DNA from: Candidatus Omnitrophota bacterium | Lineage (GTDB): Bacteria; Omnitrophota; Gorgyraeia; Pluralincolimonadales; Pluralincolimonadaceae | Assembly: GCA_003141835.1 (NCBI GenBank) | Contig: PLNR01000006.1 | Span: 14,558 to 78,557 of the forward strand | Reading direction: 5' to 3' | Length of the DNA: 64,000 bases | In this document: positions 6,556 to 39,608 of the stretch, piece by piece | Numbering within the stretch: position 1 is the first letter of the stretch | Layout of the letters: every line of letters starts with the position of its first letter | Position numbers and translations under genes: made by a program | Notes under the pieces: generated by a model | Databases searched by the model: none | Seen by the model: the letters and a program-made list of their open reading frames with translations, nothing else | What the model was told of the DNA's origin: nothing

Positions 6556-6967
6556 GGGATTTACCTCCGCTTATAAATTTTATCATCTTTATCTCGTTTC
6601 CGCTATCATTATATCCGACCTCGTCCATGAGGTTTTTTATCAGAAATATGCCCCTGCCGCCGTGTTTGAGTATATTCGTATCGGAACGGGGGTCCGGCGT
6701 CGCCTTGTAATCGAAACCCTCGCCCTGGTCACGGACCGTTATCTCGATCTTCCCGTCGGAAATAGCGTAGCTGATGACGACCGGAAGCCTGCTATCGAGC
6801 TTATTGCCGTATTTTATGGCGTTTATGACCGCCTCTTCCAGGCAAAGCCTTATGTCGAAGAGCGTCTCCCTGCCCAGTTTAAGTTTCCTGAGCGCCCTGA
6901 TCAGTTTGGCAGAGGCGGGCCTTATATATTTAGGATCGCTTGGTATCTCGAAAACCGGGTCCTTCAT
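6539..6967 (-). CDS. Anti-sigma regulatory factor: Ser/Thr protein kinase of the RsbW/SpoIIAB type
   Basis: HATPase_c-like motifs [20 protein letters not shown] and [15 protein letters not shown]. Overlaps the STAS gene by 17 nt. Confidence 0.7.
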
Positions 6968-8746: not shown

Positions 8747-9205
8747 CTATCTCATTACCAGTGCGGCGATTATTATCCCGATCAACGAACCTACAAAGAC
8801 TTCAAAAGGCGTGTGCCCTATCAGTTCCTTGAGCCTGTCTTCCTGTATCTTGCGGCGCCAGTAGATGTCATCCATTATCTTGTTGAGGATCTCGGCCTGC
8901 TGCCCGGTAGAGCGCCTTACGCCCTGCGCGTCGAAGGCGATGACAACCGCAATAACAAATGTCACTATGAAGATAGCGGAATCGAACCCCTGCTGGAGCC
9001 CGACGGCCGTCGCCAAAGCCATCACTCCGGAGGAGTGGGCGCTGGGCATCCCGCCGGTGCTGAACAACCAGCGGAAGTTAAACTTCCTCTCCTTTACGCT
9101 GTTTATGACTATCTTGATGGTTTGGGCGGTCACCCAGCCAAGGAGCGTAGCCCAAAATACCTTGTTCTGGAAGACCAGGAAGACTGAGTTATTCATATTT
9201 GGCAT
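8747..9205 (-). CDS. Divergent PAP2 / YuiD (DUF212) family membrane protein
   Basis: GGMPSAHSSGVMALATAVG...FDAQGVRRSTG matches acid-phosphatase/vanadium-haloperoxidase-related YuiD. Confidence 0.65.
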   Translation of the reverse strand: MPNMNNSVFLVFQNKVFWATLLGWVTAQTIKIVINSVKERKFNFRWLFSTGGMPSAHSSGVMALATAVGLQQGFDSAIFIVTFVIAVVIAFDAQGVRRSTGQQAEILNKIMDDIYWRRKIQEDRLKELIGHTPFEVFVGSLIGIIIAALVMR

Positions 9206-9249: not shown

Positions 9250-9326
9250 GGGGACGTTCCAAAAAGGGCACACTCCACTTATGCAATCAAATAAGGAAGT
9301 GGGGTGTCCCTTTATGGGACGTCCCC
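9250..9326. repeat. Full-length (~77 bp) palindromic member of the GGGACGTCCCC repeat family (element A)
   Basis: Left arm ggggacgttccaaaaagggcacactccactt (9250-9280) pairs with right arm aagtggggtgtccctttatgggacgtcccc (9297-9326). The loop is atgcaatcaaataagg. It lies immediately 3' of the folE stop. Confidence 0.75.
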
Positions 9327-9327
9327 T

Positions 9328-9891
9328 TTATTTAATTAGCGCAAGCGTCTCGGACCGCGTCTTCTCGTTCGAACGGAATACGCCCCTCACCGCGCTCGTG
9401 ACCGTCGATATCCCGGGCTTCTTCAAACCCCTCATCGACATGCAGAGGTGCTCCGCCTCTATCACGACCATGCATCCGCGGGGCTTGAGCTCGCGCATTA
9501 TGACCTCTGCGATCTGGGTCGTAAGCCTCTCCTGGACCTGCGGCCTCTTGGCGAGTATATCTACCGCCCTGCCCAGCTTGCTTAATCCCGTAACCCTGCC
9601 CTCTTTGGGGATATAGGCGATATGGGCCTTACCGAGGAACGGCAGCAGGTGGTGCTCGCAGACGGAATAAAGAGGTATGTTCTTGAGGAGGATTATCTCC
9701 TCGTGTTTCTGGTCGAGGACGACCTCGAGTTCCTTGGCCGGGTCCTGGCTTATTCCGGCGAATATCTCCTCGTACATCTCCGCTACCCTGCGCGGGGTCT
9801 CCTGCAGGTCTTTGCGCCTGGGGTTCTCCCCGACCGCCTCCAGTATCATTGTCACGGCCTTGATTATCTTCTTCTTGTCCGCGTTTCTCAC
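9328..9891 (-). CDS. folE: GTP cyclohydrolase I
   Basis: [21 protein letters not shown]...RPQVQERLT and the LCMSMRG motif. Confidence 0.9.
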
Positions 9892-14241: not shown

Positions 14242-14829
14242 CTAATATTTTAGCAGGTTTAGTTCCTGCCTGTAAAGCTGGATTTCGCGGCGGAGGGTGT
14301 TTATCTCTTCTTCGAGGGGAGCCAATTCCTGCCTTGCCTTCTCCACGTTGCCCTGCAATTCGGCCTGTTCCTGCGCGGAAAGGCTCAATTTCTTGTTATC
14401 GAGGAGGCCCTTCTGGTTCTTTATAGAACTCCTGATGGACGATGCCCGCGCCTCCTTGCCGGTCAGCTTCACCTTCAGCTCCTCGGCCTTGCTGTTTATC
14501 TTCTGCCTCTCCGGGTCAAGCTGGGCGGTCAGGTCGTGGGTCTTCGCGTAGAGCTCTTTCCTCTCGGCCTTGAGCTCCTCTTCAAGTTCCATGATCTTTG
14601 AGTTTATTTCGCCCTGTTTCGCGCGGAATTCACCGTTCATCGTCTCTACCTGGGAGTCTATCTGGGCTTTTTTATCGAGGACGGCCTTGAAAGAGGGATC
14701 GAACGAGATGAGGGCAGCTTTCACCTCTTCGGGCTTCTGCTGGGGCCCGCAGCCCAGGGATGACAACGGCAGGATAACCGCTGCGGCGATCAATATGGAT
14801 GACTTTATCACGCTCATATGGGTCGTCAT
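14242..14829 (-). CDS. Putative lipoprotein with coiled-coil region, unknown function
   Basis: Signal peptide with LSSLGC lipobox. Heptad-rich and K/E/Q-rich. The ATGA overlap with kamA indicates translational coupling. Confidence 0.4.
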   Translation of the reverse strand: MTTHMSVIKSSILIAAAVILPLSSLGCGPQQKPEEVKAALISFDPSFKAVLDKKAQIDSQVETMNGEFRAKQGEINSKIMELEEELKAERKELYAKTHDLTAQLDPERQKINSKAEELKVKLTGKEARASSIRSSIKNQKGLLDNKKLSLSAQEQAELQGNVEKARQELAPLEEEINTLRREIQLYRQELNLLKY

Positions 14830-16046
14830 GCCGCCGCTGGCTTTGTTTCGGCCGTCTTTGTTTCGGCCGTCTTCACATCCTTCTTTGCATGCTTGCCCTG
14901 GTGGCTGACCCTCACGACTTCGCCTTCCTCTACCGGTTCATGGTAAGTGAACATCTGGCCGGCGTAATTCCTTAAGGTGAAAGAGCCCTTAGCCTGCGAT
15001 ATGACGTAATTCGGGGCTACCGGGATCTTCCCGCCGCCGCCCGGCGCGTCGACGACATATGTCGGGACAGCGTAACCCGACGTGTGGCCGCGCATCTTCT
15101 CCATGATGTTTATGCCGGTGGCTATCGGCGTCCTGAAATGGCTTATCCCCCTTGCCGGGTCGCACTGGTATATGTAATAAGGGCGTACGCGCGCCTTAAG
15201 CAGTTCATGCATAAGCCGCCGCATCGTCGACGGCCTGTCGTTTATGCCTTTGAGCAGCACCGTCTGGCTGCCGAGCGGAATGCCCGCGTCGGCCAGCATA
15301 TCACACGCCTTCCTGCAGCGCTTCGTAAGTTCTTTCGGATGGTTGAAATGGAGCGAGACCCACACCGGGGAATATTTTTTAAGCACCGCTATCAGGCTCT
15401 CGGTCACCCTCATAGGGACGGTTACCGGCATCCTCGTCCCGAGGCGGATGAATTCAACGTTAGGTATCGCCCTTAAATTCTTGAGGATATCGTCTAATGT
15501 CTCATCCGGGAGCATCAAAGGGTCCCCGCCTGAGATCAGGACATCGCGGACCCTGTGGTTATTCCTTATATATTCATAAGCCTTCTCGAAATTCTGCGGG
15601 CTTGTCAGGTGCGCCTCGGAACCGACTATCCTCCTCCTCGTGCAATGGCGGCAATACATCGCGCACTTTTCCGTGACGAGCAATAGCACCCTGTCCGGGT
15701 ACCTGTGGACGAGTCCCGGGACCGGCGAATCCTTGTCCTCGCCGCACGGGTCCTCCATATCAAAAGCCGAGACGTCGAACTCCTCGGCAGTCGGGATCGC
15801 CTGCTTCCTTATAGGGCAGGTCGGCCTCATCTCATCTATAAGCGAAAGCCAATACGGCGTTATCGCCATCAGGAGCCGGCCCTTGGACCTCTTGACCCCG
15901 ATCTCTTCGGCCGGGGTGAGCTTGATGACCTCTTTCAGGCCGTCATAGGTCATTACCCTGTTCTTTATCTGCCAATGCCAATCCTCCCAGTCGCTTTCAG
16001 GCACATCCTTCCAGTGTTCTGCCAAGGAATTAGCGGCGTTTATCAA
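14826..16046 (-). CDS. kamA: Lysine 2,3-aminomutase (radical SAM, KamA family)
   Basis: CAMYCRHCTRRR CxxxCxxC cluster. PLP/Zn motifs typical of KamA. Length 406 aa is KamA-like rather than EpmB-like. Carries a C-terminal KTAETKTAETK repeat tail. Confidence 0.8.
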   Translation of the reverse strand: MINAANSLAEHWKDVPESDWEDWHWQIKNRVMTYDGLKEVIKLTPAEEIGVKRSKGRLLMAITPYWLSLIDEMRPTCPIRKQAIPTAEEFDVSAFDMEDPCGEDKDSPVPGLVHRYPDRVLLLVTEKCAMYCRHCTRRRIVGSEAHLTSPQNFEKAYEYIRNNHRVRDVLISGGDPLMLPDETLDDILKNLRAIPNVEFIRLGTRMPVTVPMRVTESLIAVLKKYSPVWVSLHFNHPKELTKRCRKACDMLADAGIPLGSQTVLLKGINDRPSTMRRLMHELLKARVRPYYIYQCDPARGISHFRTPIATGINIMEKMRGHTSGYAVPTYVVDAPGGGGKIPVAPNYVISQAKGSFTLRNYAGQMFTYHEPVEEGEVVRVSHQGKHAKKDVKTAETKTAETKPAAA

Positions 16047-23735: not shown

Positions 23736-23814
23736 GGGGACGCTCCATTGGGGGACACTCCATTTCTACCGTCTCTCATTACGATATGGGATGTCCCCCA
23801 ATGGGACGTCCCCC
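23736..23814. repeat. Full-length (~79 bp) palindromic member of the GGGACGTCCCC repeat family (element B), located in the nrdJ leader
   Basis: Left arm ggggacgctccattgggggacactccat pairs with right arm atgggatgtcccccaatgggacgtcccc. The arms are homologous to element A at 9250..9326. Confidence 0.75.
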
Positions 23815-23963
23815 AGGCAAAGGTTGTTACTTCTTGGGTTTCTTCTTACCGCAACCGCATGATCCGCACATCGTATTCTCTCCTCTGGTTCGACTTCGCT
23901 CACCATCCCTCGAGCTATCCTGAACGCTCCGAGGGATTTTCATCCCTTGCGTATCTGGCAATA

Positions 23964-27570: not shown

Positions 27571-27777
27571 TTATTTCTTCTCTTTCTTCTCTTCCAGGGA
27601 GTCTTTTATCTCGCCGATCCCCGCCATCACCGCGAGAAGTCCGCCGAGTAAAAGTATCATGACCAGCCCGGATTTGAGGAAGCCCACTATATATTCTTCC
27701 CACCAGTTGACCAGGCCAACCACTCCGAGGACGATGGCGATCAGTCCGCCGATTACAGAGAGATATTTGCTCACCAT
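27571..27777 (-). CDS. Small membrane protein (2 TM), unknown function
   Basis: 68 codons. Hydrophobic core with a KKEKK tail. Confidence 0.4.
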   Translation of the reverse strand: MVSKYLSVIGGLIAIVLGVVGLVNWWEEYIVGFLKSGLVMILLLGGLLAVMAGIGEIKDSLEEKKEKK

Positions 27778-29514: not shown

Positions 29515-29679
29515 TTAATCTTTTTTGGGTGACTGGGAATCGTCTTCTTTCATCGCCTTCTTGAACTCATTGATGGCCTTGCCTAATGAGCGAGCGATCT
29601 CGGGAAGGCGCGCCGCCCCGAAGACGAGAAGGACGATGATAAGGATGACTACCAATTCGGGAAAACCGATATTGAACAT
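29515..29679 (-). CDS. tatA: Twin-arginine translocase subunit TatA/E. The start is set at the internal Met, preceded by a GGAGG RBS.
   Basis: [41 protein letters not shown]. The longer 72-codon ORF adds an implausible 18-aa extension. Confidence 0.85.
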
Positions 29680-29752
29680 TTGGGCCTCCGTTTTATCTAC
29701 GGAGATTATAGCACAAGGATAAAAGCGAGGCAAGGCCCGTCGTAGGTTGTTT

Positions 29753-29944
29753 ATATAAGCGGAATGTCCCGAAGTGACACGTCCCGCTTATTCCTATTCG
29801 GGTTGCCTACGGCGCTTTGAGAAAGAACGTTATCCTGCGCGTCCTTTATTATAACAGAGCCATAGATATCATAGGTATACTTTTCTATGACGCCGGAGGA
29901 GGGGTCGGTGAGCTCTGTGACGGAGCCAAGGCCGTCGGAGGATA
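29753..29944 (-). pseudogene. Orphan Rhs core-end fragment 2. Truncated, with no toxin domain, and disrupted by repeat element C.
   Basis: Minus-strand frame encodes ...ELTDPSS.VIEKYTYDIYGSVIIKDAQDNVLSQSAVGNP, homologous to Rhs residues upstream of DPMGL. It then diverges into [15 protein letters not shown] inside the repeat element. Confidence 0.7.
29755..29786. repeat. Half-length member of the repeat family (element C): tgtccc-N3-gtgacacgtccc
   Basis: tataagcggaatgtcccgaagtgacacgtcccgc matches the right arm of elements A and B and the junction elements D and C'. Confidence 0.65.
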
Positions 29945-29995
29945 GTTATGTGAGCGGAGGGTGTACTGAAGTGACGCGTTCCGGTTCATCCACCG
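29945..29995. repeat. Degenerate half-length member of the repeat family (element C') at the 5' junction of orphan fragment 2
   Basis: ttatgtgagcggagggtgtactgaagtgacgcgttccgg is collinear with element D (ttatatgagtggagtgtctccc...aagtgacacgtcccc). Confidence 0.55.
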
Positions 29996-30010
29996 GTTCA
30001 TCCTATATTT

Positions 30011-30400
30011 TTATACGATTCTATACGAGGCGTGGGATTCAATATGGCTTTTGTCCCATCCGTCTTTATTAAGACGCCATTTATCACCCTGTGGGATGCT
30101 ATCAAATAAATGCAAATGAACTATTTCTGCTTTACTCCAAATAGCGTTTTTATATCTAAGGGTTAAAATCAATATTTTACCTTTAATGCCAGAAAATGAT
30201 ATCTCTTCGTCCAATCTAACAACCGCATCTTCATTTTTATAATATCCAGGAATAAAATCTACGACTTCTCCATAATACGCGTTTTTCCCGCTGAGCCATT
30301 CAGGGCTAGTTGAGTACCCACCCCACAGCTTAACTCTATTACCAATTTTCAATCTTTTTCTATTAAATAAATTTAATAACAAAAGTTTCATTCCTATCAT
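30011..30400 (-). CDS. Candidate immunity protein for the orphan Rhs toxin cassette
   Basis: Lies immediately downstream with ATGA overlap. It is strongly AT-rich, about 33% GC against a roughly 57% background. Its 129 aa show no similarity to the other immunity candidate. Confidence 0.5.
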   Translation of the reverse strand: MIGMKLLLLNLFNRKRLKIGNRVKLWGGYSTSPEWLSGKNAYYGEVVDFIPGYYKNEDAVVRLDEEISFSGIKGKILILTLRYKNAIWSKAEIVHLHLFDSIPQGDKWRLNKDGWDKSHIESHASYRIV

Positions 30401-31269
30401 TTAGGCCACCTCCATCCTCTATAATATTCTTTACCGGCACCACCCTCTATATCGCGTGGACCTCGCACTGGCTCCCAAGGTTTAACATCTATCTTGCGAA
30501 CCGCTGTTCCTGTGTTTCCGCCCGCTGATTCTTTAAGATTTAAAGCCTTATATGCTTCATTGCCAGGTTCATATGGCGGCTTGTTTCCGCGCACCATAAA
30601 ACGAGATTCATATGCCTCATTACCCTTCGAATAATATTGCCAATAACTACCGTTGTTCATTTGAGACCCTGTCAATGCCAATATCGATGCCGTAAGGGAA
30701 ATGTCCTTACAGAAACCGGAAGCATTCTCCAGGGAGGGATTCGCCATAAACTTTCCAGTGCCTTCTCCCAGATGACCTATGTCGGAAGGAATATTTAAAA
30801 TGTTCGTGCCTAAATCTACTACGCTGGATGCAACAGTGGCGCCAATTATATCATACGTGGTGGTAACATTACTAAAAATCATGTCTTTCAAAGTTGAGTT
30901 TTTTCCTTCAACCCATCCCTTTAACCTGTCATACCATGGGCACTTCCCCATCGGATCCGTGTAGTTAATCGGGTTATTCGAGCAATACGCATAGAGGTTT
31001 ATGCCCGCGGAGTAGCCGACAGGGTCTGTCTGGAGGAAGCGGCCTATCTTGGGGTTGTAGTAACGGGCCCTGTAGTAATAGAGGCCTGTCTCCGGGTCAA
31101 GGGCCCTTGAGGTGAAGAAATAAGGGTTGCCTACGGCGCTTTGAGAAAGAACGTTATCCTGCGCGTCCTTTATTATAACAGAGCCATAGATATCATAGGT
31201 ATACTTTTCTATGACGCTGGAGGAGGGGTCGGTGAGCTCCGTGATGGAACCGAAGCCGTCAAAGGATAG
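30397..31269 (-). CDS. Orphan Rhs C-terminal toxin cassette. It comprises a 5'-truncated Rhs core fragment and a variable C-terminal domain. There is no in-frame start codon before the Met of DPMG.
   Basis: The open frame encodes LSFDGFGSITELTDPSSSVIEKYTYDIYGSVIIKDAQDNVLSQSAVGNPYFFTSRALDPETGLYYYRARYYNPKIGRFLQTDPVGYSAGINLYAYCSNNPINYTDPMGK followed by a 184-aa C-terminal domain. The fragment is about 90% identical to the main Rhs core end. The codon-by-codon translation finds no ATG/GTG/TTG upstream of 30951. Confidence 0.75.
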   Translation of the reverse strand, partial: LSFDGFGSITELTDPSSSVIEKYTYDIYGSVIIKDAQDNVLSQSAVGNPYFFTSRALDPETGLYYYRARYYNPKIGRFLQTDPVGYSAGINLYAYCSNNPINYTDPMGKCPWYDRLKGWVEGKNSTLKDMIFSNVTTTYDIIGATVASSVVDLGTNILNIPSDIGHLGEGTGKFMANPSLENASGFCKDISLTASILALTGSQMNNGSYWQYYSKGNEAYESRFMVRGNKPPYEPGNEAYKALNLKESAGGNTGTAVRKIDVKPWEPVRGPRDIEGGAGKEYYRGWRWPK

Positions 31270-31270
31270 T

Positions 31271-31324
31271 TATATGAGTGGAGTGTCTCCCTTGCGGGGA
31301 TTTTGCCTAAAGTGACACGTCCCC
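31271..31324. repeat. Half-length member of the repeat family (element D) at the 5' junction of the orphan cassette
   Basis: tatatgagtggagtgtctcccttgcggggattttgcctaaagtgacacgtcccc. It shares the GTGACACGTCCCC motif with elements C and E and with the right arms of A and B. Confidence 0.65.
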
Positions 31325-31338
31325 AATTATCCTCGCAG

Positions 31339-31725
31339 CTAGGTTCGTATTAACTGCGATGCAATTATTTTTTCAAGTGCTTCTTTAAGAAGATTAAATT
31401 GTTTCTCTATCGTATTCCAATCTAGAGGCACAGTAAAAATTATAGGTTCTACCTTCCACCAATATCGCCTACCAAATATCGTGTCTTTAAAAGTGCAACC
31501 CCAAACCAAAAAGTTATTTAAATTTTCCCCGTCCAAATAAATCTGTATTTGTTTTGTTACTTTTTTATTTTTCCATGAAAGCGACCTTTCTGGCCAATCA
31601 TGGTAATTCTTAGTTAATTTCATTTGATGCTCTTCGGCATAATGTTTTATTTCTTTATCTATTTCCAAAAGTGAACTTTCCCCTTCTAAAAAGTTATTCT
31701 TTTTATTATCTAATGAGTTTTTCAT
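31339..31725 (-). CDS. Candidate cognate immunity protein of the main Rhs toxin
   Basis: ATGA overlap with the rhs stop. AT-rich (about 33% GC). 128 aa with no recognizable domain. Confidence 0.5.
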   Translation of the reverse strand: MKNSLDNKKNNFLEGESSLLEIDKEIKHYAEEHQMKLTKNYHDWPERSLSWKNKKVTKQIQIYLDGENLNNFLVWGCTFKDTIFGRRYWWKVEPIIFTVPLDWNTIEKQFNLLKEALEKIIASQLIRT

Positions 31726-34700
31726 TGTATATATTGTATTCCTCCTCCTGAATGACCAAATTTTGGTGGTACTCTTTCAGGCCCTCTTAAATATCTAAAA
31801 GAGCTTGGTCTAACTTCTCTAACTGCTGTCCCGGGATTATATGCTGGCAAGCTTAACTTCTCTGCGGCTTCTGTACCAACTTTGTATGGCGCGTTCCATC
31901 CTTCTCCCCTTGTTAAATATTTTGAAGTATATGCAGGATTGTCCGCAGGACCGTACTGATAAAATGGCCTTGTTGAATACGCAGCGGAGGCTGCAACCGC
32001 AGAAATGGATGCCGCCCTCGAGACATCTTTGGAGACTGATGCAGCAGCCATCCAGTAATTACCTTGGCTACTATACCGTTCTGCATCTGCCCATCCTTCA
32101 CCTAGTCTAAGGAGATCTGAAGTTCCATGTAAAACGTCAGCTGCCGTGGAAACAAGGCCATTCCAAACCCAAACCTTTGGATTCTGCGTGTAAAATCCTT
32201 CGGCTGTATCTATTCCTTCATCTAACAATTTAGCTGACTCAGAACCCCATCCACCCTTGCACAACCCCATTGGATCAGTGTTGTTTATTGGATTATTCGA
32301 GCAGTAGGCATAAAGATTCATCCCTGCAGAGTATCCTACCGGGTCGGTCTGGAGGAAGCGGCCTATCTTGGGGTTGTAGTAACGGGCCCTGTAGTAATAC
32401 AGGCCTGTCTCGGGATCAAGGGCCCTTGCTGTGAAGAAATAGGTGTTGCCTACGGCGCTTTGAGAAAGAACGTTATCCTGCGCGTCTTTTATTATAACAT
32501 TGCCGAAGATATCATAGGTATATTTTTCTATTACGCTGGAGGAGGGGTCGGTAAGCTCCGTGATGGAACCGAGGCCGTCGGTGTGGTAATAGTAGGTTGC
32601 CTGGCCGGCCTTTAAGCATACGGGCTCGTCTATTCCCGGGCCGTAGATGAACTTCCTTAAAAGGGCCCCTGTTGAATCATATTCGGCGATTACCTGGTCG
32701 CCGTCATAGATGTAGCCGGTTATCCGGCCGTTGACATCTTTCCTTATTCTCCTTCCGGTGGGATCGTAAGTGTATGCGGCTGTTGTGCCGGTCTTTGACG
32801 CCGAGACCATCCTGTTTTCATAATCAAAGGAATAAGCGTTCGTGCCGTCGCTTGTCAGGTTCCCGTTACCATCGTAGGAATACGGGGTCGAGTTGACCTG
32901 GGTGTATTGGTTTAAGTTATTCGAGCTGTAGAGCTCAACCACCCCGCCTGAGACCTGGGTGCGGTTGCCGATCAAGTCGTAATCATATGAGACGTCCGCG
33001 AACGGGTATCCTGAAGGGTAATTTACCCCTTTTACGCGGTAGGTTTTGTCGTATGTGTAGCTATGGGTCCCCTGCTGAGTCGTCATGGTCAGCCTGTTGG
33101 AGGCGTTATCATAGGTATAGGCGAAACTTGAGAAGACGGAGTTTCCGTTGACCTTCTTAAGCAGGCGGCCTATGTTATCATATGTATAGGCGGAACGCGT
33201 GTCATTATTGTATTTGATCGTCAACCTTCGAGATAAAGGATCGTATGTATACTGCGATACTGCCTGGCCTGTCTGGTCGACAATGCTCTTCAGGCGGTTC
33301 AGCTGGTCATATGTGTAGGTTAAATACGCGCCGTCGGGATAAGTCAGCTTTGTCCTGTTTCCGGCCTTATCGTATTCATTAGCGACGATCTTACCGCTTG
33401 TGGTTGTCCGCAGGACACGGTTCAAGTTATCATATTGATATGAGATCGTCTGGCCCGCCCCGCTTATTGAAGATAGGCGCGAAGCGATATCGTAAGCGTA
33501 GCTGATCACAGGGCCTGAGGAAGGCGCTTTGGATACCAGGCGGTTTAAGTTATCGTAGGAAAAGGTTATCGCATCTCCCCTTCTTGTCGTCTTTAAAGCA
33601 AGGTTTGAGTTCAGGTCGGGGGTATATGTTTCGCTTGAACCGTCAGGGAATGTCGCCTTGATAAGCCATCCCGAAGCGTCATAATCATAGCAAGTAACGG
33701 CGCCGTTTGAGTCTGTGATGCTTTTTAGTTTGCCGTTCCTGTCGTAGGTATTCTCAACCCTGCCGCCCTCAGCGTCGGTCGTCCTGATAAGCAGGTTGCG
33801 CTCATCGTACGCATATGCAGTCGTATTGCCGTTGGGGTCAGCCTGGCTTATTTTATTCCCCGCGCCGTCATAGGAGAAGCTTGTCGTGACGGTCTCCGAA
33901 GCCGAAGGATGTTCCGCGACAGAGACCAGGCGGTCGCGCTTGTCATAAATGTTCTCGACCGCCTGCCAAATTGAGCCCGCGTCATCAAGCTGGCGCTCAA
34001 TTTTAACGGGATTCCTGTTTTTGTCATACGTATATTTGGTCTGGAAATTAAATGGCGCCGGCGAGATAGACTTCAGGAGCAGGCCTATTTTGTTGTATTG
34101 GTTCGTGGCCTTCCTGCCCAACGGGTCGGTTGCGGATATGGGATTGCCTAGAACGTCATAGCCAAATAGTGTTGTAGCGTTTATCCCGCCGTAATTGAGT
34201 ATCTTTTGCGAGAGATATCCGTTCGTGTCATAAGTATTCCTGGTCACTATGCCGTTAGGGTCTGTCTGGTTAACGGGTTGGCCGTAGCTGTTATAAGTGA
34301 AAAGCTCGATAGGCGTCTGCCCGTTTACGGCCGGATGCGTCAGCCTGACCAGGTTGCCGCGGGTATCATAGCCATAGGTTGTCGTATTTCCCCTTGGGTC
34401 TGTGGCTGTCTTCACAAAGCTATACTTTGGTTCATAGGTAAACCTGCTTACGCGGCCTAAGGGGTCGGTCACGGATGTGCAGTTCCCCTTATCGTCATAA
34501 GCGTAATATGTCGTGCGCCCTTCGGGATCCGTCATGCTTGTCTTGTTGAGATCGTCGTCATAAGTATAGCGGATTACATCGCCGATAGGGCCGGTTGCCG
34601 CGGTTATGCTATCGTCCTTGTCATAGTCATATTTTGTGGTATAGCCGCGTTCGTTGGTTTCTGTCGTGACCCGCAGGGACCTGTTATGCGTAAAACTCAC

Positions 34701-35630
34701 AGCGCTGCCGTCGGGATAGGTGATCGCGACGCACTTAAGGAAATTAGGCCCTCCGGCTGTTGAGTCAAACGAGAAAGACGTCCTGTTATTATTAGGGTCT
34801 GTTATCGAGGTGATCTGCCAGTAAACGTTTTTCACGTAGATCATGCCGTTATAGAAATCGAACAGGGAATAACCGTAGCCTATACGGTTTCCCTCGGGAT
34901 CAGTGACCGAAGACAAGTTCTTGGAAGCGTCGTAAGAATAAGCGGTGACCTGGTTATTCGGCCACCTGATCGATGATATCAAGGAGTCCGCGTTATAGGA
35001 AATAACCAGGCGCCTGCCGGAATTATCCGATATCGAGGACGGAAGCCCATTACTATAAGAGATGGATATCGGGTTCCCGTTCCTGTCGGTTATATTCTGG
35101 AGCTTTCCGTCAGAGCGGAAATTGTAGGTCTTTCCGTTCTTGCGGACCAGGATCCACGAGCTCCTGTCTTTTCCCGTTAATTTTGAGAAATTTCCCTTCG
35201 GCGGAGTCCATTTACCGCCTTCCCGGTTATATACCTCTCTCAGGCCTTCCTCATTCTGGATCTCAACGCAAGTCGGTGAAAGGACTTTTACATTTATTTC
35301 ATAGTTGAAGCTCCAGCCGCGCCCGAAGAGGCCCATATAATCCTTGCCGGATATGCCGTAATAGTCCCTTGTTATCTCAAGAGAGCTATCTCCGCGGCCC
35401 GGGACCAAAATATCCTGGTTGGAGGCGTGAAGCCTCCCATTTGTCGCGTAGACCGGATCGGCAAGAGGCGCGTTATTTTTAATTTCTCCCTTCATGGGCC
35501 GCTTATCAACGTTGTTGTCATTTGGGGGCGTGCCGCAGCCGAAGGCGAGTGAGCTAAAATAAACCATAAGGATGACGGAAACAGCCGCGATTTTTTCAAG
35601 ATGCCGGGGACCACTTAAGCGCCGTGTCAT
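31722..35630 (-). CDS. rhs: Rhs/YD-repeat polymorphic toxin (1302 aa) with an N-terminal signal peptide. The Rhs core ends at the DPMGL motif and is followed by a roughly 190-aa variable C-terminal toxin domain.
   Basis: Dozens of YD repeats (YxYDxxGNR/L...). RHS-associated core ...ARYYNPKIGRFLQTDPVGYSAGMNLYAYCSNNPINNTDPMGL. Signal sequence ILMVYFSSLAFGC. Confidence 0.9.
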   Translation of the reverse strand: MTRRLSGPRHLEKIAAVSVILMVYFSSLAFGCGTPPNDNNVDKRPMKGEIKNNAPLADPVYATNGRLHASNQDILVPGRGDSSLEITRDYYGISGKDYMGLFGRGWSFNYEINVKVLSPTCVEIQNEEGLREVYNREGGKWTPPKGNFSKLTGKDRSSWILVRKNGKTYNFRSDGKLQNITDRNGNPISISYSNGLPSSISDNSGRRLVISYNADSLISSIRWPNNQVTAYSYDASKNLSSVTDPEGNRIGYGYSLFDFYNGMIYVKNVYWQITSITDPNNNRTSFSFDSTAGGPNFLKCVAITYPDGSAVSFTHNRSLRVTTETNERGYTTKYDYDKDDSITAATGPIGDVIRYTYDDDLNKTSMTDPEGRTTYYAYDDKGNCTSVTDPLGRVSRFTYEPKYSFVKTATDPRGNTTTYGYDTRGNLVRLTHPAVNGQTPIELFTYNSYGQPVNQTDPNGIVTRNTYDTNGYLSQKILNYGGINATTLFGYDVLGNPISATDPLGRKATNQYNKIGLLLKSISPAPFNFQTKYTYDKNRNPVKIERQLDDAGSIWQAVENIYDKRDRLVSVAEHPSASETVTTSFSYDGAGNKISQADPNGNTTAYAYDERNLLIRTTDAEGGRVENTYDRNGKLKSITDSNGAVTCYDYDASGWLIKATFPDGSSETYTPDLNSNLALKTTRRGDAITFSYDNLNRLVSKAPSSGPVISYAYDIASRLSSISGAGQTISYQYDNLNRVLRTTTSGKIVANEYDKAGNRTKLTYPDGAYLTYTYDQLNRLKSIVDQTGQAVSQYTYDPLSRRLTIKYNNDTRSAYTYDNIGRLLKKVNGNSVFSSFAYTYDNASNRLTMTTQQGTHSYTYDKTYRVKGVNYPSGYPFADVSYDYDLIGNRTQVSGGVVELYSSNNLNQYTQVNSTPYSYDGNGNLTSDGTNAYSFDYENRMVSASKTGTTAAYTYDPTGRRIRKDVNGRITGYIYDGDQVIAEYDSTGALLRKFIYGPGIDEPVCLKAGQATYYYHTDGLGSITELTDPSSSVIEKYTYDIFGNVIIKDAQDNVLSQSAVGNTYFFTARALDPETGLYYYRARYYNPKIGRFLQTDPVGYSAGMNLYAYCSNNPINNTDPMGLCKGGWGSESAKLLDEGIDTAEGFYTQNPKVWVWNGLVSTAADVLHGTSDLLRLGEGWADAERYSSQGNYWMAAASVSKDVSRAASISAVAASAAYSTRPFYQYGPADNPAYTSKYLTRGEGWNAPYKVGTEAAEKLSLPAYNPGTAVREVRPSSFRYLRGPERVPPKFGHSGGGIQYIQ

Positions 35631-35642
35631 TAGTTTTCTCCG

Positions 35643-36380
35643 TTAGTTAGTTTTTTCAATGTCTTCTATGTTCGCCTTTGCCTGTTCGGCAAGTTTGGTG
35701 TCCGGACCTGCCCTCAAAACTTCCTTGAATGAATCAAGCGCGCTCACGCGGTCCCCGAGAAAGAAATAACATCTGCCTTTCTCAAGCCAGACCCATTGCA
35801 CCGTTTCCGGGGTAAACGTTCCTTCTTTAAGGGCGCTTGCATATTCTTCTATCGCGTCGCCGTATCTTGTCCTCTCGCAGTAGCACCAGCCGAGATTTAT
35901 ACGGATGTAGCCGGCCAAACCGCTCTTTTCGGAATAATGAAGGGCTTTTTCATAGGATTCGATCGCCTGGTCATATCTTTTCAGATGTTGAAAGGATTCG
36001 CCCGCCGAATAATACAATCTTAGTATATCCATCTTGCTCCCGGGATAGCGCTTAGAAAAATCATCACATAAACGCAGGACATCGTCATACTTGGCTGAGC
36101 TTATCAGGGATGGCATTAACCGCTTCGTTATCGCGAGCCTCGCATCCCGCGTCATATTAGGGTCATTGAGAAGAGCTTCCTCGAATGGGTCTATCCCGCC
36201 GGAGGATGAGGCGTTTTCATCACAATTTATACCGTCAAGCTTGGGATCTATATAAAAAGACACCGCCTCTCTTTCATCGAGGAACGACTCTATCCTATTT
36301 ACCGCGTCAAGACGGCTGTCTTCAGCCGCATAAAGAAAAACGGGAATAACGAGAATAAGGCAAAAAACGACAGCGCGCAT
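35643..36380 (-). CDS. Secreted TPR-repeat protein
   Basis: Signal peptide plus TPR-like helical repeats (YYSAGESFQHLKRYDQAIESYEKAL...). Lies immediately upstream of rhs. Confidence 0.6.
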   Translation of the reverse strand: MRAVVFCLILVIPVFLYAAEDSRLDAVNRIESFLDEREAVSFYIDPKLDGINCDENASSSGGIDPFEEALLNDPNMTRDARLAITKRLMPSLISSAKYDDVLRLCDDFSKRYPGSKMDILRLYYSAGESFQHLKRYDQAIESYEKALHYSEKSGLAGYIRINLGWCYCERTRYGDAIEEYASALKEGTFTPETVQWVWLEKGRCYFFLGDRVSALDSFKEVLRAGPDTKLAEQAKANIEDIEKTN

Positions 36381-37205
36381 TTAGAACTCCGCTAACGGGT
36401 CTGTCAGGTCGTCCGGCGTCCCCAACTTTTTATCTTCACCTTCCGAGCCGTATTTTTGGTATTTGATAAACTGGTTTGCCCTCGCGACAGAGCCGTCAAG
36501 ATTCCTTAAACCCTCGTACATCTTATCCATGATGTGTGTCATCAAGGCCGGATCCGAGGCCGGACAGGCCATGAACGCTTTCTTAAAACAGGAAAGAGCT
36601 TCTTTGTTCGAGCCTTCGGCCATGAATGCGTCTCCTAATTCAGCGAAACTCTCGGCTCTCTGGCTATTCGCGGATGGATAGTTGTCTATGAGTTTCTGGA
36701 ACTCGGCCTTAGCTTGAGCCGGATTTTTCATTTTTATATACGCCCTGCCTATCATTAATTGGGCGACCGGAGCATTATAATCATTCGGATAATCCGAAAT
36801 TATTTTACGATACTCGGCTATCGCCGCATCGGGCTTATTGAGACAATTTAATGTTATCTGGGCTATTTCGAACCGGGCCCTGGAACACTCGGCCGTGATC
36901 GACGGATACAGCTTCGGCACTTTTTCATATTCATCTATGGCTTTTTGATATTTTTGTTTTGAATAGTGGTAACAGCCTATATAATACTGCGCCTTGGCGC
37001 ACAACAGCGGTTCGCCGGGATTATTAATTATGAAGTCCTGAAGGTCCTGCAGCTTGTCCCAGCCGCCGTCCCACCAGAAATTAGGGATATCCCTGACTAT
37101 GCCGGAGAATTGCGCGTCGGCAGAGATGCCATCAGGGAAACATGGCGCAGTGAGATTCAATACTAAAAGTGAAGTAATCATGAGGATAAAAACCAGTTTT
37201 TTCAT
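36381..37205 (-). CDS. Secreted TPR-repeat protein
   Basis: Signal peptide plus TPR motifs (AQYYIGCYHYSKQKYQKAIDEY..., AQLMIGRAYIKMKNPAQAKAEF...). Stop/start-adjacent to the previous TPR gene. Confidence 0.6.
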   Translation of the reverse strand: MKKLVFILMITSLLVLNLTAPCFPDGISADAQFSGIVRDIPNFWWDGGWDKLQDLQDFIINNPGEPLLCAKAQYYIGCYHYSKQKYQKAIDEYEKVPKLYPSITAECSRARFEIAQITLNCLNKPDAAIAEYRKIISDYPNDYNAPVAQLMIGRAYIKMKNPAQAKAEFQKLIDNYPSANSQRAESFAELGDAFMAEGSNKEALSCFKKAFMACPASDPALMTHIMDKMYEGLRNLDGSVARANQFIKYQKYGSEGEDKKLGTPDDLTDPLAEF

Positions 37206-37292
37206 TTGCGACTTTCTTTTTTAGTGTTTTTTCACGATTTATGCCCACGTGAGCAATTTATCACATAATTTTCAATTGTCAAACTAAATTAG

Positions 37293-37322
37293 TTGCTTTT
37301 TTATAGCAAAATTTAATATAAT
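37293..37322 (+). promoter_or_regulatory. Candidate sigma70 promoter for the spermidine-synthase-like gene
   Basis: TTGCTT-N18-TATAAT in an AT-rich tract immediately upstream of 37329. Confidence 0.4.
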
Positions 37323-37328
37323 ATACCT

Positions 37329-39608
37329 GTGCAAAATAAACCGGGGTGTCCTAACGTGACACGTCCCCTGACGTTTGCGGTATTTACTTTCGGTTTCACC
37401 GCGATGGCCGTCCAGATACTGATGATGCGGGAACTCCTGGTGGTCTTCTACGGGAACGAGCTTTCCGCAGGCGTCATGCTCGCCTCCTGGCTCTTCTGGG
37501 TCGCGGCGGGAAGCTTCGCAGCAAGGTTCAAAAAGTTCCGGGAAGAGATATTCCACTTACTACTCCTTTCCGTTTCTATAATCGCGCCGGCTACTATATA
37601 TTTTATAAGAGAGTTAAGGAACATCCTCGGCGTCTCCGCCGGCGAGCTGATCGGGCCGGTGCCGATGGCTTTATCCGTTTTTATCCTGCTCGCTCCGGCC
37701 TGCCTGGTCTTCGGTTCCCTTTTCGCGGTCAGCTGCCGCCTCGCCTCACCGGAAACGCCTTCGGCACCGGCCACAGCCGGAAAGATCTACATGATAGAAT
37801 CGCTTGGCGCTGTCGCCGGAGGCGTCGCGTTCAATCTGGTCTTGATCTATATCTTCGCCCCCTTACAGATAGCTCTATTCTGCGGCGTATTGAACGCCAT
37901 CGCCGTTCTTGTAGTCGCCGACAGGAATAAGGCTCCTATAAGATGGGCGGCGACTTTGGTATTCATGTGTTCCGTTTCCGTTTATATCATGTTCGGCTCA
38001 GGACTGAACGATTTCGAGATGCGTCAGGCGCAATGGAAGGGCCTCGAGCTGATAACCGTAAAAGATTCCAAATACGGGAATATCGCGTTGACAAAGCTCG
38101 GCTCCCAATTCAACCTGTTCGAGAACGGGCTCCTTACCGCGGCGACCAACGACCCGCTCACAGCCGAAGAATCGGTCCATTACGCGATGCTCGAGCACCC
38201 GGCGCCCAAAAAAATCCTGCTTATAGGCGGGGCGTTGAACGGCGCACTGGATGAGGTGCTGAAACATCCGGTCGAGTCGGTCGATTGCATCGAGCTCGAC
38301 CCCGAATCTGTGGAGGTCGCAAAAGAAAGGTACCCTGCGGGATCGCTCGCGGGCTTATCCGACCGCAGGGTAAAGATGCATTATCTTGATGCCAGGCTCT
38401 TTGTAAAGGAAAGAGCCCTGGCACTGGACGCGCCTTCCTCGCGATACGACGTAATAATACTTACCCTTCCGAACCCTTATACGGCGCAGATAAACAGGTT
38501 CTTCTCTTTTGAATTTTACGGGGAGGCCAGGCGCATACTTGACGCGAACGGCGTCTTCTCCTTCGGAGTGACGTCTTCAGGGGATTATATAAGCGCCGGA
38601 CAGGCCAGGTTCCTGAAGTGCCTCGTCCTTACCCTTTCAAAGCGTTTCCCCGATATAAAGATCATCCCGGGAGACAATAATTATTTCCTCGCCTCGCCTT
38701 CCGCCGGCATCCTGACATATGACTATAAGACGCTCGTCGCGAGGGCCAAAGAAAGAAACCTCGCGCTTAAATTCGTCAACGAACATTACCTGCCGGATAA
38801 GCTGGACCCGATGCGCGTAGAATACCTCGAGGGCGCGATAAAGGCCGCTAAGGGGGCAAAGATAAATTTCGACCTGCGGCCGGTCGGATATTATTATGAC
38901 CTGGTCCTTTGGTCGGCGCGGGTCGACCCGCGGCTCAAGTCTTTCCTTGAGGGGCTCAATACCTTCAACTGGGGGATAATATTGGGGATACTGGGTTTTG
39001 CCTTCATCGGCCTGACCCTGTTCCGCGGGAAGAGCGATTCCTTGAAACGGATGCCGTATTTCATCTCGATCGGGATTACTGGTTTCACTACGATGCTGCT
39101 GCAGGTGGTCCTTATACTGGCGTTCCAGTCGGCGTACGGCTACGTCTACTACAAGATGGGGCTTATATTCGCCTCGTTCATGCTGGGGCTTGCCGGCGGG
39201 AGTTACGCCGCAGCGGCCTCTAAGCCGTTTAAAAATGATGCGTCACTCGCTAAGCCGTACTTCAATATACAGGCCGCACTCTGCGCCTACTGCCTCCTAC
39301 TCCCGGTCGCGCTCCGTATGAATTGGGTCTCCGAGGGGTTCTTCCTGTTATTGCCGGCAGCCGCGGGGCTTTTGGGAGGGCTGCAGTTCACTATAGCGAA
39401 CAGGATATGTTCCGGCGGCAATAGGAATCTTGCGCCGGCGATCTACGCAGTCGACCTTATAGGCGCGTGCGCCGGATCGCTGTTGGCCGCCGCGGTAATA
39501 ATACCTGTCAAGGGAATGGACTTCGCGTGCATCTCGGTGGGGTTCGTGAATCTCGCGGTGCTGGTGTTACTCGCGGGCGGGGATCAGCTCTTCCTCTCTA
39601 AAACATAA
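37329..39608 (+). CDS. Fused polytopic membrane / spermidine synthase-like (polyamine aminopropyltransferase family) protein. The annotated start is GTG; the true start may be the GTG at 37356.
   Basis: N-terminal 7 TM and C-terminal 5 TM segments. Central SpeE-like domain KKILLIGGALNGALDEVLKHP...CIELDPESVEVAKERYP...YDVIILTLPNPYT. Confidence 0.75.
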   Translation: MQNKPGCPNVTRPLTFAVFTFGFTAMAVQILMMRELLVVFYGNELSAGVMLASWLFWVAAGSFAARFKKFREEIFHLLLLSVSIIAPATIYFIRELRNILGVSAGELIGPVPMALSVFILLAPACLVFGSLFAVSCRLASPETPSAPATAGKIYMIESLGAVAGGVAFNLVLIYIFAPLQIALFCGVLNAIAVLVVADRNKAPIRWAATLVFMCSVSVYIMFGSGLNDFEMRQAQWKGLELITVKDSKYGNIALTKLGSQFNLFENGLLTAATNDPLTAEESVHYAMLEHPAPKKILLIGGALNGALDEVLKHPVESVDCIELDPESVEVAKERYPAGSLAGLSDRRVKMHYLDARLFVKERALALDAPSSRYDVIILTLPNPYTAQINRFFSFEFYGEARRILDANGVFSFGVTSSGDYISAGQARFLKCLVLTLSKRFPDIKIIPGDNNYFLASPSAGILTYDYKTLVARAKERNLALKFVNEHYLPDKLDPMRVEYLEGAIKAAKGAKINFDLRPVGYYYDLVLWSARVDPRLKSFLEGLNTFNWGIILGILGFAFIGLTLFRGKSDSLKRMPYFISIGITGFTTMLLQVVLILAFQSAYGYVYYKMGLIFASFMLGLAGGSYAAAASKPFKNDASLAKPYFNIQAALCAYCLLLPVALRMNWVSEGFFLLLPAAAGLLGGLQFTIANRICSGGNRNLAPAIYAVDLIGACAGSLLAAAVIIPVKGMDFACISVGFVNLAVLVLLAGGDQLFLSKT
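37344..37369. repeat. Half-length member of the repeat family (element E) in the 5' region of the spermidine-synthase-like gene
   Basis: ggggtgtcctaacgtgacacgtcccc matches the right-arm consensus (G[GA]TGTCCC-N-GTGACACGTCCCC). Confidence 0.6.

Follow-up and report, generated by a model that had tools for sequence, protein, structure and literature searches.

Do the short repeats that sit at the junctions of a displaced toxin-gene array help to build that array, or are they simply carried along with it? The question is raised by a 64,000-nucleotide (nt) stretch of DNA from a Candidatus Omnitrophota bacterium (assembly GCA_003141835.1, contig PLNR01000006.1, positions 14,558 to 78,557; hereafter the window), in which an Rhs gene of full length, together with its immunity gene, is followed by orphan Rhs fragments, and in which three related elements, termed D, C' and C, lie at the junctions. 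An original prediction, made from the letters of the window, held that the element is either the breakpoint or vehicle of cassette duplication or a miniature inverted-repeat transposable element (MITE) that preferentially inserts at displaced cassettes. We find that D, C' and C belong to a dispersed family of the repetitive extragenic palindromic (REP) type, which in relatives is associated with genes resembling REP-associated tyrosine transposases (RAYTs), and that all three copies share a single junction. The units are probably passengers in an array that was shaped by recombination between Rhs cores.

The junction elements are copies of one repeat

All relevant genes lie on the minus strand, and the three elements are described on that strand, which is the rhs coding strand. 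The locus has the organization of an Rhs orphan array: a YD-repeat Rhs of full length, which has a variable C-terminus beyond its DPxGL-type boundary and a small immunity open reading frame (ORF) downstream, is followed by further stretches of core 3' homology that are fused to different C-termini and immunity genes and lack a start of their own (Table 1). Related elements were found where they had been predicted, at 31271-31335 (D), 29940-30000 (C') and 29742-29799 (C), and the three copies can be aligned over ~60-75 nt, well beyond the GTGACACGTCC core, as copies of one repeat family. With up to two mismatches the 13-mer AGTGACACGTCCC has four matches in the window against 0.9 expected (0/100 shuffles reached four), and a left-half motif has three matches against 0.1 expected; chance does not account for the elements. 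Additionally, three separate Logan contigs of run SRR7151659 (L002, L004 and L133; L numbers denote DNA retrieved from the databases) match the window exactly across every junction, spanning imm1-D-fragment 1, imm2-C'-fragment 2 and fragment 2-C-tatA, and the array is therefore no assembly artefact. The 64-kb window is also contained in the ENA metagenome contig ERZ27254250:k141_277284.

Each element is built around a REP-like unit of two or three 15-nt modules (GGGGACGYNNCAYTT), which on the coding strand of C read CGGGACGTGTCACTTC and GGGACATTCCGCTTA. The coordinates place D between the main toxin-immunity pair and the start of the orphan Rhs, as had been claimed; it begins 6-14 nt past the imm1 stop and ends 3 nt short of the start of Rhs-core homology (GACGG, 31260-31256). 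The in-frame stop said to close the orphan frame at D is also real, its TAA sitting in the linker beside the unit, and C' does lie between imm2 and fragment 2. The description of C stood in part: the frame of fragment 2 does read through C, but the fragment itself stops at 29800, so that C is not inside it, and the sequence past C does not continue fragment 2 but is a third linker and a GACGG stub joined to the tatA flank.

C and its flanks (29753-29791) form an imperfect hairpin (DNA fold z = -3.7), and C' folds no better than shuffled sequence. None of the three copies has the form of an intrinsic terminator, promoter and terminator scans made no coding-strand call at any of them, and searches of Rfam returned nothing at the elements (E up to 5) and nothing across the window at gathering score. 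Just upstream of C' we also observed an 11-12-nt tandem duplication (GGATGAACCGG, twice) at 29986-30008.

The unit is dispersed in the window and across Omnitrophota

With up to three substitutions allowed, the unit pattern has five true copies in the window versus 0-1 in shuffles. Extra units were reached via the core GGGACGT, giving a total of eight units at six sites, again versus 0-1 in shuffled sequence. Five of the eight lie at three sites away from Rhs, two of which are inverted pairs; the three rhs copies, unlike the pairs at 9251-9326 and 23736-23813, are singlets. The unit at the remaining non-Rhs site, within 37329-37376, is contained in the called ORF of spermine synthase, at its 5' end (GTG at 37329 or 37356). 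When this site was compared with a 91%-related strain (L005), no clean presence or absence of the unit was seen, as L005 has a shorter, differing sequence there, and the N-terminal peptide of its spermine synthase differs at the unit site. Separately, a tiny Cys-rich ORF, MCGSCGCGKKKPKK (23825-23869, minus strand), was noted immediately upstream of the pair at 23736-23813, whose terminal T-run resembles that of a terminator.

A generic unit pattern, GGGGACGYNNCANNNNNGGACAYNCC, was scanned over the GTDB species representatives and matched at least 117 stretches. Among the matches listed, 87 come from ~38 bins (27 Omnitrophota/Omnitrophica and 11 'uncultured Planctomycetia'), and in these 87 Omnitrophota-type loci 143 units or arrays were counted, of which 42 form convergent pairs; many singlets and seven tandem 15-nt arrays are also present. 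The 30 loci of other phyla among the matches listed contain one pair, and 26/31 of their matches fall inside long ORFs and therefore look as chance predicts; the overlap count is a crude one (stop-to-stop ORFs in six frames), used solely to contrast Omnitrophota with other phyla. Several contigs per bin carry units in relatives, and the bin JAHJHP01 has at least 13 unit-bearing loci. Hairpins fold in L024 (z = -13.3) and L041 (z = -8.2), and L079 carries 5.3 tandem copies of GGGACGTGCCACTTG. Tandem arrays of 15-nt modules with up to 5-6 copies, unusual for REPs, were observed in L079 (7292-7371), L042 (2580-2700) and L052 (7727-7785).

The exact rhs-type element, including the linker-side motif, had no match in either the GTDB species representatives or the JGI metagenome contigs, and the rhs-type junction is therefore confined to the lineage of the window; relatives were recovered solely by the generic unit pattern. 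When the Rhs loci of more distant relatives (L005-L011 and L129-L131) were searched with a profile built from the three elements, it gave no match, and fuzzy pattern scans of L129-L131, L006 and L005 found nothing except one-module repeats around the transposase of L129. A search of related genomes for the element next to toxin cassettes, as the original prediction had proposed, thus recovers a unit that is spread over ~38 Omnitrophota-type bins and flanks RAYT-like genes, and that is not tied to toxin cassettes. The outcome named in advance as making the junction placement coincidental, high copy number with no enrichment at toxin cassettes, is in part what was found, in that the family is dispersed well beyond them.

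In relatives, units bracket RAYT-like genes

Three loci carry a Y1 transposase gene bracketed by units: units at 2308(+) and 3017(-) enclose a gene at 2418-2993 in L118, units at 6724(+) and 7408(-) enclose one at 6766-7341 in L077, and units at 6844(+) and 7565(-) enclose one at 6972-7553 in L085. In all three the units are inverted with their GGGGACG ends outward. These genes, together with a fifth homologous locus that is cut by a contig end (L061), were retrieved with the transposase protein of L129. In L129 itself the order is rhs, immunity gene, GGGGACGGTTCTCTTT, a 201-aa Y1 transposase gene (14449-15054) and AAGGAGAACCGTCCCC, with one-module arms of 16 nt that are 94% complementary; this RAYT-like gene and its inverted one-module repeats thus stand directly downstream of an rhs-immunity pair (bin GCA_028707125.1, 13756-15081).

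All four complete proteins find their best match in the 'REP-associated tyrosine transposase' family of NCBIfam (NF047646), which they match over the whole model (positions 1-146) with 71.1-77.7 bits, the curated cut-off being 80. Against IS200, three of them reach 17.7-24.6 bits, and the fourth, the L085 protein, has no match at E<=0.01. The HxH (NHFHLL) and YIERNPVRA motifs are visible in the transposase sequences, and no relative of solved structure was found by sequence. The first and last modules of D are closely like the RAYT-flanking units of L077 and L085. The 64-kb window as a whole gave no match to a RAYT-like gene, so that transposase bracketing is seen in relatives only. Taken together, the unit and the Y1 (HUH) transposase appear to form a family of the type of REPs, their hairpin-forming doublets (REPINs) and RAYTs in Omnitrophota. 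Among the results listed by a literature search, no paper pairs RAYT or REPIN with Omnitrophota.

The three copies share one inherited junction

D, C' and C have the same layout: the stop of an immunity gene, a unit, a 17-nt linker that is not REP sequence, and GACGG, where homology to the Rhs core starts. The same junction of unit, linker, GACGG and Rhs core is present in L142/L143, which belong to a set of related-strain arrays (L141-L144) that were reached by a search with the orphan protein. In L142 (1203-1285) the gene for a 126-aa immunity protein is followed by a unit, ATATAACTATCTTTT, and GACGG with 36 nt of core, and then by unrelated DNA and a different orphan. The linker consensus in D, C', C and L142/L143 is (C/T)A(T/C)ATAAC(T/A)A(T/A)C(C/T)T.., all junction copies are in the same orientation, and on the left of the unit neither the flanks nor the immunity genes are related to one another. 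Four copies of one non-functional join, with the same linker and GACGG, indicate that one ancestral junction was copied, and that the units did not insert independently. Identity between D and C' is ~70% within the unit, 77% over the opening 22 nt of the fragment and ~99% over the remaining ~115 nt, a gradient which suggests that the junction alleles are old and that the fragment bodies were recently homogenised by recombination.

The related strains of L141-L144 (ERZ18633542, ERZ27229616, ERZ27313048 and ERZ27229617) have a longer, differing orphan array, with a 256-aa orphan, a 126-aa immunity protein, a 406-aa orphan, a 207-aa immunity protein, a 130-aa gene product and a 256/251-aa orphan. 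At least three junction types occur in it, and one immunity gene is found in two alternative downstream contexts. After the gene for the 207-aa immunity protein, a possible degenerate unit (L142, 3214-3340) aligned poorly.

The right end of the window's array was delimited by comparison with sister strains that have an identical TatA (L134-L139). These strains carry a gene for a 417-aa GH5 mannosidase between spermine synthase and tatA and no TPR-TPR-Rhs array, and the array (29731-37300) is therefore a strain-variable island. The flank shared with the Rhs-lacking strains begins at CCTTGCCTCGC, which in the window is preceded by C, the linker and GACGGG, and CCTTG is present in both the fragment start GACGGCCTTGG and the 3' end of the GH5 gene. 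Only CCTTGCCTCG... is flank in this comparison, and the linker and GACGG after C belong to the repeated segment. The idea that C is ancestral downstream flank whose GACGG-like bases are pure microhomology is refuted by the same strains. It follows from this alignment that the stub of a third fragment comes after C and is fused to the flank at a 5-nt microhomology. The array thus consists of unit, linker and fragment three times over, the fragments being full length, 137 nt and ~6-11 nt long, and another deletion truncated fragment 2, which ends 13 nt before C.

Probable passenger units in a recombining array

We consider it likely that the REP units are passengers in an Rhs array driven by recombination. 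One unit would originally have lain a short way downstream of an rhs-immunity operon, where REPs are usually found, and a single old illegitimate join would have fused the sequence 17 nt past it to the GACGG of the Rhs core. This would have produced the first segment of immunity gene, unit, linker and core fragment, whose junction would have been inherited thereafter. Homologous recombination in the ~330-nt core fragments could then move toxin-immunity modules, via excised circles or unequal crossing-over, and each movement would carry the unit and linker along; integration of a circle into the core would put both ahead of the displaced tip. Later illegitimate deletions and joins may have trimmed the fragments to stubs of 137, 36 and ~6-11 nt, and the CCTTG-microhomology join would be the right end of the whole Rhs island. 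An inherited junction of this kind is what the circle and homologous-recombination model of Jackson et al. 2009 (PMC2935791) predicts, as its circles carry 'any intervening genes' along with a core fragment and a tip, and unit and linker would hitch-hike with them. If the unit acts at all, it probably does so as a 3'-end hairpin (an RNA stabiliser or terminator-like structure) for the immunity gene.

Several points weigh against this reading. The RAYT-like proteins score just under the 80-bit NCBIfam cut-off, copy number and RAYT content in the source genome refer to its 64-kb window only, some junctions in the related arrays carry no unit, and a unit beside an immunity gene recurs in distinct lineages (L033 and L129), which could hint at something beyond passive position. 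Fragment 2 ends within 13 nt of C and each of the four stubs directly follows a unit, which could reflect hairpin-promoted breakage in place of random deletion. REP hairpins or RAYT cleavage might accordingly have made the first join of unit to GACGG, the truncation of fragment 2 at C and the short stubs, since each truncated stub comes immediately after unit and linker, C folds well as a hairpin, the rhs-immunity pair of L129 is directly followed by a RAYT and its repeats, and L033, of a different lineage, has a unit between immunity gene and orphan fragment. In enterobacteria and Neisseria, duplications and deletions have also been reported to join at REPs. That the unit was causal in this way nevertheless seems unlikely to us. 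The unit-GACGG join is identical in four copies, so it formed once and gives no breakpoint statistics, and stubs after a unit are expected anyway, because a complete immunity gene must be kept and the unit follows it. The sole join that can be seen against an 'empty' strain lies 26 nt away from the unit, at a simple microhomology of 5 nt, and other junction types in the related arrays have no units. The locus of L033 was found via the unit itself, which biases it as an example; when four Rhs loci were selected purely for their Rhs homology (L006 type, L129, L130 and L131), a unit was present in L129 only. It is possible that the element was the breakpoint of the first duplication, but a role as the 'vehicle' of cassette duplication is unlikely, since the left flanks differ at each copy. 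We judge it quite improbable that REP and RAYT actively drive the turnover of toxin cassettes, with single-strand cleavage or hairpin-stalled replication at the unit creating the illegitimate joins that start, extend and trim arrays, and with unit, linker and fragment serving as a portable 3' homology arm by which any toxin-immunity module could be added through two core crossovers. If true, such a role would tie the way in which polymorphic toxins diversify to a transposase-repeat system that has been domesticated.

The shared linker bears on the prediction of a MITE that inserts preferentially at displaced cassettes. The family is indeed of a miniature mobile-element type, and the units differ by 25-30% and by indels, as could be expected if a mobile REP or MITE had repeatedly targeted the spacer downstream of displaced immunity genes. 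Such independent insertions would not, however, recreate a common non-REP linker and GACGG join, the one orientation throughout speaks against them, and the divergence is explained by old junction alleles. The alignment of the three copies with their flanks, made as the original prediction had suggested, contains no target-site duplications. A MITE bounded by terminal inverted repeats and a target-site duplication was rejected on the same alignment: no flank is duplicated, the flanks on the left have nothing in common, and on the right lies the linker that all copies share. Repeated insertion is very improbable. We find it scarcely credible that the units are a dedicated cassette recombination site (attC- or Xer/dif-like) or IS200/IS605-style ends mobilising fragment, toxin and immunity gene together. 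The direct-repeat units D and C' do bracket orphan 1, and the unit at 37343-37368, oriented as C, lies upstream of the whole island; but a gene for an integrase, Xer or Y1 did not turn up where the window was examined (in full for RAYT-like matches, over 21-42 kb for precomputed Pfam matches), the order of core sites does not fit attC, there is no conservation to the left of the units, L005 has the island and no intact left unit, and the family lies mostly away from toxin genes. The nearest look-alikes of an integron attC are in reverse order (ATTGGGG ... ATATAAC on the coding strand, versus RYYYAAC...GTTRRRY), and with no integrase among the annotated genes of the locus this candidate was rejected.

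The Rhs genes and their neighbourhood

The features of the locus are collected in Table 1. Precomputed Pfam matches on the full-length Rhs are DUF6531, RHS_repeat and TEN_YD-shell, and its core ends in ...NNTDPMGL, followed by a variable tip, CKGG...; neither the toxin CT1 nor imm1 or imm2 has a Pfam match. The nearest named Rhs relatives come from Omnitrophota. The homology between the main core and the orphan fragments appears as a repeat family, D1, with a spacing of 1319/1324, and over 300 nt the core fragment of orphan 1 shares 88% identity with the main core (repeat D2). The toxins CT1 and CT2 are different, and the two immunity genes are likewise unrelated. Orphan 1 has no start codon at its 5' end and an in-frame stop immediately upstream; its sole ATG-started ORF (30397-30951, minus strand) begins at the Met of DPMG, so that the toxin domain alone is translatable in principle. 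Fragment 2 is ~99% identical to fragment 1 except in its first 22 nt.

Table 1. Positions of the repeat units, linkers, joins and genes in the window
Feature	Positions	Strand	Remarks
D, REP-like unit	31280..31324	-	three 15-nt modules, the middle one degenerate; reads GGGGACGTGTCACTTTAGGC[15-nt insert]GAGACACTCCACTC
D linker	31263..31279	-	17 nt, ACTCATATAACTATCCT; holds in-frame TAA; between D and Rhs fragment
C', REP-like unit	29955..29985	-	degenerate, two modules; reads CCGGAACGCGTCACTTCAGTACACCCTCCGC
C' linker	29940..29954	-	CTCACATAACTATCC; between C' and fragment 2
C, REP-like unit	29759..29786	-	two modules; reads CGGGACGTGTCACTTCGGGACATTCCGC; 1 mismatch to family pattern
Third linker and stub of third Rhs fragment	29736..29758	-	TTATATAAACAACCTAC and GACGGG; C linker itself 29742-29758
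CCTTG microhomology	29731..29735	-	right join of whole Rhs island to tatA-proximal flank; comparison with L134-L139
Further unit	37343..37368	-	GGGGACGTGTCACGTTAGGACACCCC; upstream of TPR-TPR-Rhs operon, 5' end of divergent spermine-synthase ORF
Inverted pair	23736..23813		REPIN-like hairpin then T-run; z = -5.6
Inverted pair	9251..9326		between folE (9328-9891) and DUF212 gene (8747-9205); z = -6.5
Two TPR genes	37205-36381 and 36380-35643	-	upstream of Rhs
Full-length Rhs, 1302 aa	31722..35630	-	C-terminal toxin CT1 after DPMGL; ORF and translation
GACGG site in main Rhs core	32575..32579	-	codons ...H-T/D-G-L-G-S (slash, start of site); homology with all orphan fragments starts here (alignment)
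imm1, putative immunity gene, 128 aa	31339..31725	-	ORF; stop at 31339-31341
Orphan 1	30397..31260	-	Rhs core fragment from GACGG, ~110 codons to DPMG, and toxin CT2
imm2, putative immunity gene, 129 aa	30011..30400	-	ORF; stop at 30011-30013
Orphan fragment 2	29800..29936	-	137 nt of Rhs core from GACGG; ends 50 codons short of DPMG
tatA	29515..29679	-	first conserved gene downstream of Rhs island

In 56%-identical relatives (L006-L011, 1-20000) the TPR-TPR-Rhs trio lies within an operon resembling those of type II secretion and type IV pili, with T2SSE/F/G, PilM/N/O and a secretin, and no VgrG or PAAR was seen. The N-terminus of Rhs resembles a lipoprotein signal (...SSLAFGC), and the precomputed gene calls around the island include no genes of a type VI secretion system. 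A few genes downstream of tatC, a 67-aa gene product has a precomputed Pfam match to the magnetosome protein MamI (27571-27777 region; L001, 13952-14155).

Relation to known systems

The family resembles the REP/REPIN-RAYT systems, or REPtrons (Nunvar 2010; Bertels & Rainey 2011, PMC3116915; Bertels 2017, PMC5581495), in its short, apparently multi-copy extragenic repeats, in inverted pairs that fold into long hairpins with singlets as decayed halves, and in a Y1/HUH gene bracketed by inverted repeat copies. A further likeness is the typical position downstream of genes; in the window, one of the eight units lies in the 5' end of a called ORF. Unlike the classic REP, a single 20-35-nt palindrome with a GTAG head, the unit described here consists of two to six tandem 15-nt modules, and the Omnitrophota transposases fall just below the NCBIfam RAYT cut-off. 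Classic REPs are usually more lineage-specific, whereas the Omnitrophota unit sequence is common to ~38 species-level bins.

According to Di Nocera et al. 2013 (PMC3733652), the terminal GTAG or CGTC tag of tagged REPs is followed by a stem of 8-9 bp with a loop of 4-5 nt, and then by a short CCA-like tail. Set against that description, the present units were not placed in the GTAG/CGTC superfamily: they are tandem 15-mers with no GTAG, CGTC occurs on the complementary strand in GGGGACGT, and the stem-loop-tail layout is absent. The same paper describes TIRYT genes, which encode RAYT-like tyrosine transposases of non-proteobacterial phyla and resemble the present layout; they are flanked by GGGGWSAS terminal inverted repeats that start GGGG(A/T)(C/G)A(C/G) and form moderately abundant families as dimers or clusters. 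Compared by motif description only, the inner or second module GGGGACAC fits GGGGWSAS at 8/8 positions and the outer or first module GGGGACGT at 6/8; a 15-nt periodicity and tandem arrays are, by contrast, unmentioned in the sections consulted of that paper.

The array itself is of the kind known from Rhs C-terminal displacement (PMC2935791; Poole et al. 2011, PMC3150448), in which a full-length rhs is followed by modules of core fragment, toxin and immunity gene, the fragments fall in the same core clade as the main gene, and the circle or recombination route carries intervening DNA. It differs in that the orphan fragments start at an identical base after the same REP-plus-linker scar, also in one related strain, and in that it forms a strain-variable island behind two TPR genes. 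The additional points are modest: a build from 15-nt modules, a unit that is common to many species and an inherited scar of REP unit, linker and GACGG.

These findings remove an apparent Rhs-specific junction element and replace it with a general genome repeat that probably hitch-hiked with toxin cassettes, consistent with the existing recombination model of orphan arrays. The inherited scar of unit, linker and GACGG is a concrete molecular marker of cassette history. More broadly, a REP-like family and its RAYT-like partner are documented in Omnitrophota, a phylum known almost solely from metagenomes, and the family may be of use for binning, strain typing and the study of REP biology outside Proteobacteria.

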